The translations under genes were made by a program, and so were the position numbers. From Eledone cirrhosa (Eukaryota), in assembly GCA_964016885.1 (NCBI GenBank), contig OZ024742.1, forward strand, positions 17,360,001 to 17,424,000: a stretch of 64,000 nucleotides of DNA, written 5' to 3'. How positions within the stretch are numbered: the stretch's first letter is position 1; each line of letters begins with the position of its first letter. The notes under the pieces were generated by a model, which saw only the letters and a program-made list of their open reading frames with translations, searched no databases and had not been told where the DNA came from. This document shows, piece after piece, positions 11,073 to 52,531 of this stretch.

Positions 11073-11703
11073 TAAATGGAAAAAATGAAACGAAATTTCA
11101 TTTCCCACTCTTAGTACGGCTGTTACTTAAATATAAGTATGTACACGTACATACATATATGTATACAGACGTACAGTAGTATGTATATATATATATACAT
11201 ACACGCAGACATATATATATGTACGTATGGATTCACCGAACATTTATTATAATGCTCGGTGTGTTTGTAAATAAACATCCCGTATTAAGCCGTAGTGTCT
11301 AGCAACCATCGTTGCTCGTTTGTTCAACAATGACAAAGGAACGCTGTACTAGTTTCAAGCTTATTAGCTATCGTCACCAACGTATACCTTCCTGCCAGAT
11401 TGTTGAACGTATATACTTACCTTATGCATATTAATCTGGCAGGAAGGTATACGTTGCTGACGATAGCTAATAAGCTTGAAACTAGTACAGCGTTCCTTTG
11501 TCAGTGTTGAACAAACGAGCAAGGATGGTTTCTAGACACTGCGGCTTAATACGGGATGTTTATTTACAAACACACCGAGCATTATAATCAATGTTCGGTG
11601 AATCCATACGTACATATATATATGTATGCATATATGTATATATATATACATACTACTGTACGTATGTATACATATATGTATGTACGTGTACATACTTATA
11701 TTT
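11073..11703. mobile_element. Fold-back Penelope-like non-autonomous element, family A
   Basis: Arms ~11129-11400 and 11434-11702 are near-perfect reverse complements, flanked by TA repeats. Related copies lie at 38301-38895 and 49955-50222. Confidence 0.85.
11452..11492 (+). ncRNA. Minimal type I hammerhead ribozyme (CUGACGA core, GUA site)
   Basis: cgttg-CTGACGA-t-agct-aata-agct-t-GAAA-ctag-TA-cagcg: stem I cgttg/cagcg and palindromic stem III ACTAGT. Confidence 0.85.
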
Positions 11704-11842
11704 ATATATATATATGAATGTATGTATAGTATATTTGGCAATATACCGTATGTTTAATTAAAAACATTTAGAAGACCATACGCGATCAGTTTTAAAGTAG
11801 TGACTATGTCACTTCCCTTTTTTCGACGAAAGAAGGGAGAGA

Positions 11843-11883
11843 AGCTGACAGTCTGTTTCACGCTGCTGGCGATCATCAGAGCC
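11843..11883 (-). ncRNA. Minimal type I hammerhead ribozyme (CUGAUGA core, GUC site)
   Basis: Minus strand reads ggct-CTGATGA-tcgc-cagca-gcgt-GAAA-cagactg-TC-agct. Confidence 0.85.
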
Positions 11884-14029
11884 ACGCACTCTCCTGCTTC
11901 CGCTTAAAATTATAGAAGCTGGATTCTTATAGAATTCCAGTAATAATCAGGAGCTGATTATACACAGCGATTGCCGGTCCAGCAAACATTAGGTATTAGG
12001 ATTGGTGCACTGAAATAGCGATGTATACATGAATGTATGTATATATATATATATATAAATGTATATATGTATAGAGAGAGATGTAAATCCACATGCATTG
12101 TTATGCCCGCACCACCCATCACACACTACCACACACATAAACACCCAGACAGTATAGTAAGCAATGTGTACGTTAGACACACACGGTTAGATACACTTAC
12201 ACACACACACACACCCACACATATATATATAAATATATATGTATATATATAGCTATTTAAACGTATGTTATTACTCTAAGGACCTACCTTATCGAGTGCT
12301 TTGCTAACTCATCATTTCATATAAGTAGGCCGAATTTGCTTGCAAACCGCCAGAGATTCGATTTTACTAAATTTCCAATTATGTATATATATATATATAT
12401 ATATATATATATATATATATATATATATATATATATATATATATATATATATATATATATGTGTGTGTGTGTGTGTGTGTGTGTGTGTGTGTGTGTGTGT
12501 GTGTGTGTGTGTGTGTGTGTGTGTGTGTGTGTACATATCTCTTTAATTCCACTTATAACTTGAAGTATATGCATAATTTCTAATGTCTGTTTTGTTATAT
12601 CATCTCCGAATTCCCTTGGATTAAATATCTTACTTGAAAGAGCTTACACAAACATCAACACTTTTTAAGTGCATTAGTTAAGAGAAGACCAATTTAACTT
12701 TAAGATTGTCCTTTATATTTGATAACCCTCCAACTAAAGCTCTTAATTCTCTTTGTGGTGGTGTCACCAGATGGCCACATTTAAATAGTTGCCACATATA
12801 AGCATAACAGAGTATGAATACAAAACACTTTATAAGTGTCAAATTACTTAAGGTGTGTAAATATATGACAACAGTTATACCTGTCAATATTGGTGAGAAG
12901 AATAATTGCTGTGTAGAATATAAACAAAAGAATTTTTGCGCTTTGTTTTAAGATTGAAACCTCTTTGTCAACGGCGGTCGCTCTGGGGTTTATAGAAATA
13001 TAGAACAGTCTTTAAATCTATATAGAGAATATACTAATCGTTGCTGAAGGTAGAAACTGTCATAATACGAGAAAACTCTATAACAATACAAAGAAAATGA
13101 CCTTTGTTTGATAGATGTTCATGTGGTGCCATCTAATAGATTCTCTAAAACATCATATTTTATCCTGAAAATAATTTCTTTTAACTTGATGTTGTTGTTG
13201 TTCTTGTGGTATCTATAATTTCTTGCCAGTCTTCTGCATTTGCATTGTGGCTTTCTTTTATTAAGACATTTTATTTCTATCTCTTTCAAATTTAAACGTC
13301 GATGTAGTGTCTCTTGAAAATGTTATAATCCATCGCATCTACATAGTTGACAGAATTGTATTGTATATAATGCCTGCAAGAAATAATATCCATATACCCC
13401 TAACATCCCATCCCACCTTCTTTAAAACGGAAAGGATACACTGAATAATGTGCGAATGGTATAATGTGTAGTAGAGTTTTGAATAAAATATTCCGAAGTT
13501 CTTCAATATATGATTAGTTGCACATTCATTTGTCGCTTCTTCCAAACTGCGTAAAACACTTGAATGAAACACTTACAGCTGGGACATACATACCACAATA
13601 TTTTAAATTCTTCAAAAATGTCACATTATTATACGGAGTCTTTGAGAACGGTTCTAAAGTAGTTATGGTACTACGTGTGATTCCATATATTTACTCGCTA
13701 CTGTCTTACAATGAGCTTCGTATCGACACGCACTTCTATTTATGATAAAATTCTGAAACATGCACCTCACCTCTTTTGGGGCTGCTATACGTCTTATTAA
13801 AGAAATTTAGCGGAGAAGCAGAAGCGATAGAGATTCGATTTTCTTTCTTTCATCACCTCCAAGTCAAAATAATTACAAATATGTGTTGGTATCGATACAG
13901 TAGGCTATACGTTCTTATTCTTTACAATTCCCAGGCTGGCAATCCAGTGTAAGAAATAAGTCTCTCCCCATAAGGTAATCTCCAGTTTCTTCTGAAATTC
14001 AGATCACTAGACGTGTGTAGAGTTCCACT

Positions 14030-50924: not shown

Positions 50925-51270
50925 TATGAAGAAAGAGAAAAGATAGAGAGAGAAAGAGTGAGAAAGAAAGTAAGAGAGAGAAAGAGAGAGAGTGAGAAAA
51001 AGAGAAAGAAATAAGAATGAGAGAGTGACGATGAACGAAAGAATAAGAACAGGAGATAAAGATATAAGAGAGAGAATGAAAGAAAGAATGAAAGTGTGAG
51101 AAAGAAATAAAGAAAGAAAGAGGGGGTGAGAAAGAAAGAGCGATTGCGAAAGAAAGAAAGAAAGAAAGAAAGAACAAGACTGAGTAGAAGACAGAGAGAG
51201 AAAGAGAAAGTGTGGAGTGGCTGTGGTTGATCAGAGTGAAGAAGAAGAAGAAGAAGAAGAAGAAGAAGAG
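50925..51270. repeat. GA-rich low-complexity tract ending in (GAA)n
   Basis: Direct reading. Confidence 0.85.
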
Positions 51271-51769
51271 GACGTTTTAAAAAAGAATGTTTTCCACTGC
51301 ATGGCTGTGGTTTGAAAGTGTTGAAAGTGTTATTAATACGATAGACTGTTTATGTGAATCGATCCGATAGATAGACGGAAAACGAGAAGAATATTTAAGT
51401 TCCTGTCAGCAACTCTTTCTATCGACCGTGAATTAGTATTGATAATGGCTGTTAATGGTGCTCTCCTTATTTCATTAAGCCAATTAATCATTTATTTTAT
51501 GTACTTCTTTGGTGTTGCTGAATATTTACGCAATACTTTATACACACACACACACACACACACACACACATATATATATATATATATATATATATATATA
51601 TATATATATATATATATATATAATTTTTATTTTGAATATGATTGACTTCTTTTCTTTCTATGCTTTTCTGTTATATATATATATATATATATATATATAT
51701 ATATAAAATTTAAAGGGTATATACATATAAACTAGACAAACCCATAGATATAGATATATATATATGTTT

Positions 51770-52531
51770 TTGGCAGCCATTCACGGTGTGGCTCAATGAC
51801 GAATTAATTAAATGATTAATAATCAGAGCAATATATAAGAAAGTAAGTCCATAGAATCATTAGATAAAATATATACAGTATTTCTTCTCCCAATCAGCAT
51901 AAATAAACCACACAAAAAAATCATTTAAACGTGACTATAAGTTTAAAATATACTTATGAAGAAACAATAGATAAATGATATAGCTTTTTATCCGTGACTC
52001 ATAGCTATAGAAGATTTACCTAGTATTTCTGATAGCCTGTAGAAATTGACTAGACATATAGTTAACCATACATAATTAGGTAAAAAAATCAAAGTTAGAA
52101 GAAAAAAATGTACATAAACCTTACCAAAATCATCAAAATATCTCTACCCCGGCGGTTTCATTCCATTTTTGGATATATCCGATCTTGGATAAATCACCGA
52201 GGTTGGAAATCATCAGGAGATAACGCAATTGGACAAAGATTTTTCTTACATGATCCCCGCCAGAAACGAATTCAAAATGGCTAAGAATCAACCTAATTAT
52301 GTATGGTTAACTATATGTCTAGTCAATTTCTACAGGCTATCAGAAATACTAGGTAAATTTTCTGTAGCTATGAGTCGCGGATAAAAAGCTATATCATTTA
52401 TCTATTGTTTCTTCATAAGTATATTTTAAACTTATAGCCTCGTTTAAATGATTTTTTGTGTGGTTGATTTATGCTGATTGGGAGAAGAAATACTGTATAT
52501 ATTTTATTTAATGATTCTATGGACTTACTTT
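51770..52531. mobile_element. Fold-back element, family F
   Basis: Arms 51840-52081 and 52291-52531 are inverted, the spacer contains a hammerhead, and TA tracts flank it. Confidence 0.88.
52140..52221 (-). ncRNA. Type I hammerhead ribozyme with extended stem II (CUGAUGA core, GUA site)
   Basis: Minus strand reads atctc-CTGATGA-t-ttcca-[38 nt]-tggaa-t-GAAA-ccgccgggg-TA-gagat. Confidence 0.8.

Follow-up and report, generated by a model that had tools for sequence, protein, structure and literature searches.

Head-to-head insertions of Penelope-like elements and hammerhead repeats in TA-rich DNA of Eledone cirrhosa mostly pair one tailed with one shorter 3' end

The inverted pseudo-long terminal repeats (pLTRs) of endonuclease-bearing (EN+) Penelope-like elements (PLEs) are the closest described counterparts of the fold-backs analysed here, which lie in a 64,000-nt window of the Eledone cirrhosa genome (GenBank assembly GCA_964016885.1, contig OZ024742.1, positions 17,360,001–17,424,000). 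The head-to-head inverted copy has been described as the most frequent PLE arrangement, with an optional tail on one inverted pLTR (PMC3846280), and inverted copies that bear a tail at only one end and lie in (TA)n targets have also been reported, the tail being ascribed to resolution by the endonuclease (PMC8557442). In vitro, the protein of an anole PLE cuts and extends both strands, using two start sites, one on either side of the tail (PMC11167929). The fold-backs of the window consist of PLEs and hammerhead repeats that have entered (TA)n in head-to-head orientation, and they resemble the EN+ elements, as far as these are described in PMC3846280, PMC8557442 and PMC2377424, in the head-to-head 5'-truncated copy, the one-sided tail, the hammerhead in the pLTR and the (TA)n target. 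This architecture is largely known: the polarity and the one-sided tail have already been published, as has the finding that in vitro both strands are extended and two start sites are used. The new part is a quantitative rule, by which each inversion has one tailed and one shorter 3' end, with independently templated arms from one source. No statement of such a one-of-each rule or of twin priming in PLEs was found in the literature searched, which did not extend to subscription papers and supplements.

The window is located on one contig of the 3.0-Gb genome, and its fold-backs were located by self-comparison. Thirteen repeat families were defined and built from natural copies, and their 3' ends were examined in approximately 1.53 Mb of the same genome, consisting of 664 kb chosen by position (window included) and of loci from own-genome searches; the latter are best-scoring copies only and are biased to young, query-like copies. 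A further 200 kb served as a hold-out. Most families presented two sharp 3' ends approximately 30–145 nt apart, the end with the tail (L) and the end upstream of it (S). The ten families other than A yielded 102 L+S, 5 L+L and 4 S+S inversions, and family A added 24 L+S and one doubtful L+L among the 25 loci with two standard ends. As the tandem units of family A confuse BLAST, its pairs were scored manually in a jump alignment covering 55 distinct loci. Family B, for which the own-genome search yielded no match, contributed six pairs only. Pairs with non-standard ends (54/193, all families) and two C2 pairs were left out of the counts, and two F rows scored L+L were retained although those arms continue into the next unit. 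Combined, L+S could be observed in 126/136 inversions with both ends standard, compared to a mean of 71 and a maximum of 96 in 20,000 within-family shuffles of the ends. In the position-picked 664 kb, 32 L+S, 2 S+S and no L+L pairs were counted besides 8 non-standard ones, and the hold-out gave L+S in 11/12 pairs, the remaining one being an L+L of the same F kind, with 2 further non-standard pairs. The published tails of EN+ PLEs, in the descriptions cited above, are optional and 30–40 bp long, whereas the tail here measures approximately 30–145 nt and L+S pairing prevails.

Both ends of family E could also be recovered from Illumina raw reads of two other samples (one study). The S end enters (TA)n, with 145 and 207 loose ends behind position 42435 of the window, and in one of the two samples the L end was seen too, near 42567 (146 reads); thus, the L and S ends are no assembly artefacts. 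Opposite-strand joints in this test reflect a reference stretch containing part of the minus arm and are not new inversions. Assembly artefact was ruled out for the fold-backs themselves, as the arms differ by up to 14%, the ends are element-specific and the raw reads show them.

S-only insertions also occur, one of which (locus L162) carries a 12-nt target duplication, so that S is able to start an insertion alone. Single S-only insertions were found in 4/37 loci of the PLE family D2, and in position-picked DNA single arms were about as common as pairs. Family F showed single S-ended arms in 20/28 loci and inversions in 4, while 46/53 matches of family C2 ended at a single site and its 29 loci included one symmetric inversion and one short inverted piece. 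Families that use both ends are often inverted and one-end families (C2, F) seldom, as would be expected if inversion requires a second priming. C2 (L188–L216) and F (L249–L276), which bear hammerheads, are flanked by TA and have mostly one 3' end, form a natural control. At L161:3738–3752, a full-length D2 copy (pLTR, open reading frame (ORF), pLTR) was seen with an inverted S arm of approximately 17 nt at its 5' end; arms as tiny as this would escape annotation.

The polarity of the pairs was nearly invariant. Adjacent same-family arms on opposite strands with no TA between them were arranged minus-left/plus-right in 193 cases and tail-inward in 3, all of which sit within rearranged copies, and the hold-out contained 14 head-to-head and no tail-inward pairs. 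The first-pass annotation had claimed that every palindrome oriented by a ribozyme core has its 3' ends outward; for inverted copies this holds, tail-inward palindromes being far from equally frequent, while "every" is limited by C2 and F, which have mostly one end and are seldom inverted. Orientation was fixed largely with a hammerhead descriptor, whose strict first version matched just one core among single reference copies, so a looser version was applied to all copies. Its matches on the tail-ward and the other strand numbered 95 and 1 in family A (230 matches), 12 and 0 in B (30), 30 and 0 in D2 (116), 14 and 0 in F (55), 12 and 0 in H (75), 6 and 0 in J (29), and 3 and 0 in I (18). A single match each was obtained in C1, C2 and G, and no hammerhead was detected by the descriptor in E or K. 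Family E was oriented by a CTGATGA...GAAA core spotted by eye, and K and D2 by their ORFs. The type I hammerheads in the pLTRs of A, B, D, F, H, I and J, in which our descriptor was strand-specific, are predicted ribozymes; Rfam searches at gathering scores found no hammerhead, and the folding of eight hammerhead regions gave energies no better than shuffles.

It is likely, in our judgement, that these insertions arise when both nicked target strands prime, one at S and one at L, probably of the same RNA. The endonuclease would nick both strands of an AT-rich target, and the two start sites flanking the tail would be set by the protein-RNA complex, aided by 2–6 nt of TA pairing. Two active sites, probably those of a dimer, would occupy both sites of one RNA, each being used once. 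Each cDNA would end independently of the other, in many cases immediately 5' of the hammerhead. A template jump or end joining, involving 0–3 nt of homology or a short insert, would then connect the two 3' ends, and each cDNA would in turn template the second strand of the other. Priming by a single strand would leave an ordinary single-arm copy, as in F and C2.

The lengths of the arms bear on the published reading, in which a cDNA, or an antisense template (PMC3846280, as described there), copies itself by self-priming or snap-back, with later asymmetric deletion at the unstable centre of the palindrome altering which arm has the spacer. The 37 D2 loci comprised 30 inversions in which both ends were standard (29 L+S, 1 L+L), 5 single arms and 2 unclear cases. 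The S arm extended further inward than the L arm in 12/29 D2 pairs, and three L arms were only 40–97 nt long, facing S arms of 1.7–3 kb. Across eight other families (70 pairs), S reached further inward in 26 and L in 15, while 29 were tied within 8 nt; 12 L arms were confined to the tail, which with the three of D2 makes 15 tail-only L arms. A fold-back from the tailed arm requires S inside L, and a fold-back from the S arm would have no tail, so that a plain fold-back cannot account for roughly four in ten of the pairs, in which neither arm can have been copied from the other. The proposal of the first-pass annotation that both target strands prime and the products join head to head is supported by these longer S arms and tail-only L arms. 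A negative correlation of D2 arm lengths was set aside, since the search had demanded one long arm. Snap-back would explain the common source of the arms and the near-equal inner ends of the 29 tied short-family pairs, several of which are centred on short self-complementary motifs; we nevertheless consider it unlikely, given the lengths above and the junctions and inner ends described below.

Both arms probably stem from one source lineage, judging from the variants they carry. The two arms of D2 insertions shared non-majority letters at 147/15,365 sites (0.96%) compared to 0.20% between insertions, and differed at 0.75% of sites compared to 2.5% between insertions. Across 25 D2 insertions, 109/147 shared letters and 21/98 differing sites recurred in other insertions. 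Family A arms shared 0.57% compared to 0.06%; the variants at positions 118 and 223 of the family A unit were disregarded, being artefacts of selecting query-like matches. The arms of locus L163 had no differences over 895 sites, yet its S arm was approximately 840 nt longer, which indicates that arm asymmetry is not tied to age and also speaks against snap-back.

Homology at the inner junctions was short, with a mean of 1.5 nt in D (22/35 junctions without inserted bases) and 1.9 nt in A (22/43 without inserted bases), where 0.8 is expected by chance in either family. The other junctions contained 1–28 extra bases, partly fragments of other elements and partly reference mismatch. Homology this short agrees better with a template jump or end joining than with annealing over a long stretch, and hence is another point against snap-back. 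The inner ends of G, H, J and B cluster at the hammerhead, those of single arms included, which snap-back would not predict. The clusters lie at reference positions 236–262 (G), 640–656 (H), 390–408 (J) and 392–405 (B), within or just 5' of the hammerhead, and each adjoins a CAG resembling a 3' splice site, preceded in G by CTAAT. They could represent a stop of the reverse transcriptase (RT) at a structure, the RNA 5' end or a splice boundary. Inner junctions had been said to differ between copies, which was confirmed; in the example given for it, 11434 versus 38668, the start of the plus arm differs while the minus arms stop within approximately 5 nt. Junctions identical in all copies were not found, interiors being variable. 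A miniature inverted-repeat transposable element (MITE) with fixed terminal inverted repeats was ruled out, since only one of the two ends has the tail and the copies have different inner junctions.

The identity of the L site separates the proposed priming at S and L from the version of the first-pass annotation, in which L is the functional 3' end and S an internal AU-rich site; transcripts of L-ended source copies would then run into (UA)n that pairs with the target. That version has in its favour that (TA)n follows L-ended copies, so that read-through RNA would bear (UA)n. In family A, however, L is position 422 of the 422-nt tandem unit, with the predicted hammerhead cut at approximately 148, i.e., 274 nt earlier, and in D2 it lies 43 nt before the ATG of the next ORF (L161). 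As L is internal in tandem copies, it is not evidently, and by its position in these copies probably is not, the RNA 3' end. The overlap with TA was 3–6 nt at L and 2–5 nt at S, so L has as much TA microhomology as S. Flanking TA runs were equal, with a median of 26 nt at L and 23 nt at S (p = 0.69; n = 136); the longer run was at L in 65 pairs and at S in 68, and a run of at least 8 nt was present on both sides in 116/136. No unique 3' transduction was seen. In vitro, extra 3' sequence left the start sites unmoved (PMC11167929, in the experiments described). The internal 10- and 14-nt TA tracts of family A accounted for only about four ends; since such longer tracts rarely serve as ends, microhomology alone does not choose the site. 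The contrast between an RNA 3' end and an internal AU-rich site is accordingly not supported, and L as the functional 3' end is improbable.

The explanation offered in PMC8557442, that the endonuclease removes one tail, would have both cDNAs start at L (or one be a hairpin copy) with one end then cut at S. One tailed end would follow by construction, and earlier work cited in PMC11167929 found endonuclease recognition to depend on the tail. S-only single copies, however, are common (the 20/28 F and 4/37 D2 loci above, one with a target duplication) and would have no primed end, and both boundaries of the tail are reverse-transcription starts in vitro as reported in PMC11167929; this origin of the S end is quite improbable. 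An origin from two RNAs of the same locus, each bound by one subunit in its own register, or from two consecutive insertions into one site would suit the mixed-family L+S pairs at 39440–39678 and 49611–50223 and the missing collision signal at S, but is very improbable with only 2 such pairs against 193 same-family pairs, arm variants that match the same lineage and no TA target inside the inner junctions.

Several points weigh against priming at S and L of one RNA. Ten of the 136 pairs break the rule as L+L or S+S, one of them being a clean D2 insertion of the L+L kind (L165). The two mixed-family pairs in the window would have required either two RNAs in a single event or a deletion that later brought two neighbours together. 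Arm stops no more than 8 nt apart, as in 29/70 short-family pairs, would be given by a fold-back too, and the best point for a fold-back is family G, in which ties exceed the shuffles (15 versus 10, p = 0.011). No accumulation of L-arm inner ends was found at the S site, with 8 lying within 12 nt of it and 9 in the adjacent upstream bin, so that no sign of collision on one RNA was obtained. Two loci supply 41/67 shared letters of family A, and arm-to-arm conversion could be the source of shared variants. In vitro, start sites did not differ between the strands and were not homologous to the cut DNA, according to the account in PMC11167929. No orthologous empty allele was seen; when known repeats were searched for nested PLEs, L162 was the one case that could be used.

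D2 is an autonomous PLE and is Hydra-clade-like by its motifs, compared with the published description. Its ORF, with 749 open codons in L161, contains YRDD and a C-terminal IIY..YVG endonuclease, and its alignment shows RWR (RWK in relatives), DKT, CxCX5C, and CxxC and CxH around E and N residues. This agrees with the Hydra-clade motif set as described in PMC8557442, including the lack of CCHH, with RWR replacing RWK. The homologues numbered 52, including two named from Argonauta, and one was annotated PF00078; searches of Pfam and PDB sequences with the D2 ORF gave no match, and neither did a short-fragment search. The pLTRs are partial-tandem, L161 having the order pLTR-ORF-pLTR and L182 being alike. 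The features of EN+ PLEs found are a single ORF with RT and GIY-YIG, partial-tandem pLTRs, a hammerhead, an inverted 5' copy and a one-sided tail. With the Hydra clade (PMC8557442, as described), D2 shares the motif set, the C-terminal GIY-YIG, the hammerhead and (TA)n targets, whereas the units of that clade are under 3 kb and the D2 unit is approximately 3.7 kb long. Family K has an 866-amino-acid PLE ORF (L168:1090–3687) with a weak RVT_1 match below the cut-off; an Asn-rich N-terminus and a CX4CxxC linker make it Neptune-like by motif.

The ORF-less family A, with copies at 11073, 38305 and 49958 of the window, is built of 422-nt tandem units that each contain one type I hammerhead; its arrays reach 7 or more units. 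It is probably retrozyme-like, matching the description of non-LTR retrozymes (bioRxiv 10.64898/2026.07.22.740005) in tandem units, type I hammerhead and absence of an ORF. In the text of that preprint, the word "tail" is absent and "inverted" occurs in a reference only, whereas family A bears the full L/S signature of a PLE. The remaining families have hammerhead-like cores close to their 3' ends.

LINE-1 twin priming likewise produces an inversion, one RNA being primed by the second target strand as well. There, the first primer uses a poly(A) 3' end, the second anneals at varying upstream positions and the inverted and direct parts are free of overlap, whereas the two start sites here are fixed and close, so that the arms overlap into a palindrome. 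Twin priming of the LINE-1 type was rejected as a description of these copies, because the arms overlap in most pairs and there is no poly(A); just the 15 tail-only cases come near it. PAc, the anole Poseidon element, is similar in that two starts flank the tail, both strands are cut and extended, targets are AT-rich and a dimer is predicted, but its start sites show no strand difference and the text of that study does not discuss inverted insertions (PMC11167929). The PAc start sites lie inside the ORF without target homology, as described there, whereas those of D2 lie before the ORF with 2–6 nt of TA.

Within the window, the large fold-backs given by the first-pass annotation are present at 11073/11128–11704, 22060/22121–22423, 23200–23466/23510, 35579–38155/38250, 38305/38357–38898, 42089–42436/42578 and 51705/51831–52538 (outer ends with and without the extra terminal sequence), together with about eight smaller ones. 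Four of its five extra termini were quoted correctly, and the fifth, given as 22085–22120, begins at approximately 22060. A family J fold-back at 7376–7552 has the L arm on the left (minus) and the S arm on the right (plus), the S arm extending further inward. The family A fold-back at 11073–11704 consists of an L arm at 11073–11434 (minus), with its tail at 11073–11127, and an S arm at 11433–11704 (plus); its right arm carries a type I hammerhead core at 11457–11487 (plus) with a predicted cut after 11487, mirrored near 11347–11377 (minus). Of the two family B fold-backs, that at 22060–22423 has the L arm left, with the tail at 22060–22120, the S arm right and a hammerhead-like core at 22314–22343 (plus), which we take to be a U3-A8 type hammerhead variant; that at 23200–23510 has the S arm left and the L arm right, with a shortened tail. 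Family I occupies 25378–25685 (L arm left, S arm right; hammerhead core at 25558–25583, minus), family H 27129–27348 (S arm left, L arm right), and families G (34906–35131) and K (35151–35406) both have the L arm left and the S arm right, the family K ORF being that of L168.

The D2 element at 35579–38250 is 5'-truncated, with the S arm at 35579–36511 (minus) and the L arm at 36511–38250 (plus). It retains the C-terminal part of the GIY-YIG endonuclease of the D2 ORF (36507–36824, plus), a pLTR hammerhead core (38056–38105, plus) approximately 50 nt upstream of the S site, and the tail (38156–38250). An older subfamily of A forms the fold-back at 38305–38898 (L arm left, S arm right), a family H pair at 41958–42070 combines a nearly tail-only L arm on the left with a short S arm, and the family E fold-back at 42089–42578 has an S arm at 42089–42304 (minus) and an L arm at 42326–42578 (plus) with the tail at 42437–42578, the spacer belonging to the S arm. 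Family F lies at 51705–52538 (L arm left, tail approximately 51705–51830, S arm right); beyond its TA runs, the flanks 51622–51672 and 52548–52600 are approximately 80% alike by eye in direct orientation.

Of the mixed-family pairs, neither of which has TA between its arms, that at 39440–39678 joins a G S arm (minus), a short minus piece of H and an H L arm (plus), and that at 49611–50223 joins an H S arm (minus) to an A L arm (plus) starting at the hammerhead cut; each still has one S and one L end. The mixed head-to-head pair at 23641–23913 consists of a C1 L arm (minus) and a plus arm with a C1-like hammerhead followed by the 3' part of C2, which stops approximately 20 nt before the usual C2 end. 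The plus-arm hammerhead is 77% like C1 and runs into C2, possibly by recombination at the ribozyme.

Between 34906 and 42578, families G, K, D2, A, G/H, H and E pile up within 8 kb of shared TA tracts, which suggests that TA runs act as insertion hubs. Small fold-backs whose orientation is not fixed lie at 33474–33560, 41830–41943, 56633–56759 and 56851–57000. A repeat resembling a short interspersed element (SINE) is abundant (43430–43590, 48170–48560, 53690–54500 and many other places); two copies, inside the D2 elements of L163 and L180, share one insertion site and have a 14-nt target duplication, and the repeat builds a 45-nt satellite upstream of the window. Tandem arrays occupy 14659–15912 (75 nt), 28038–28944 (461 nt) and 61812–63966 (44 nt).

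The origin of PLE inverted pLTRs and tails was called undefined in PMC8557442, and the later steps of insertion were left unvalidated in PMC11167929, as stated in the parts of these papers that treat them. The one-of-each rule links the pair of start sites seen in vitro with the two strands of the target, speaks against self-priming as published, and makes the open mechanism of PLE insertion testable in the existing in vitro system. It accounts for many palindromes of TA-rich invertebrate genomes that are liable to mis-annotation as MITEs, and the PLE insertion signature borne by tandem hammerhead repeats supports their mobilisation by PLE proteins. More broadly, we see an even chance that PLEs, and retrozymes likewise, integrate by a built-in double priming, with one complex, one RNA and two start sites, one per strand of the broken target. 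If so, double priming alone would yield the inverted pLTR, the one-sided tail and second-strand synthesis, families that prime once would give ordinary single copies, and animal retrozymes would move by the same step.

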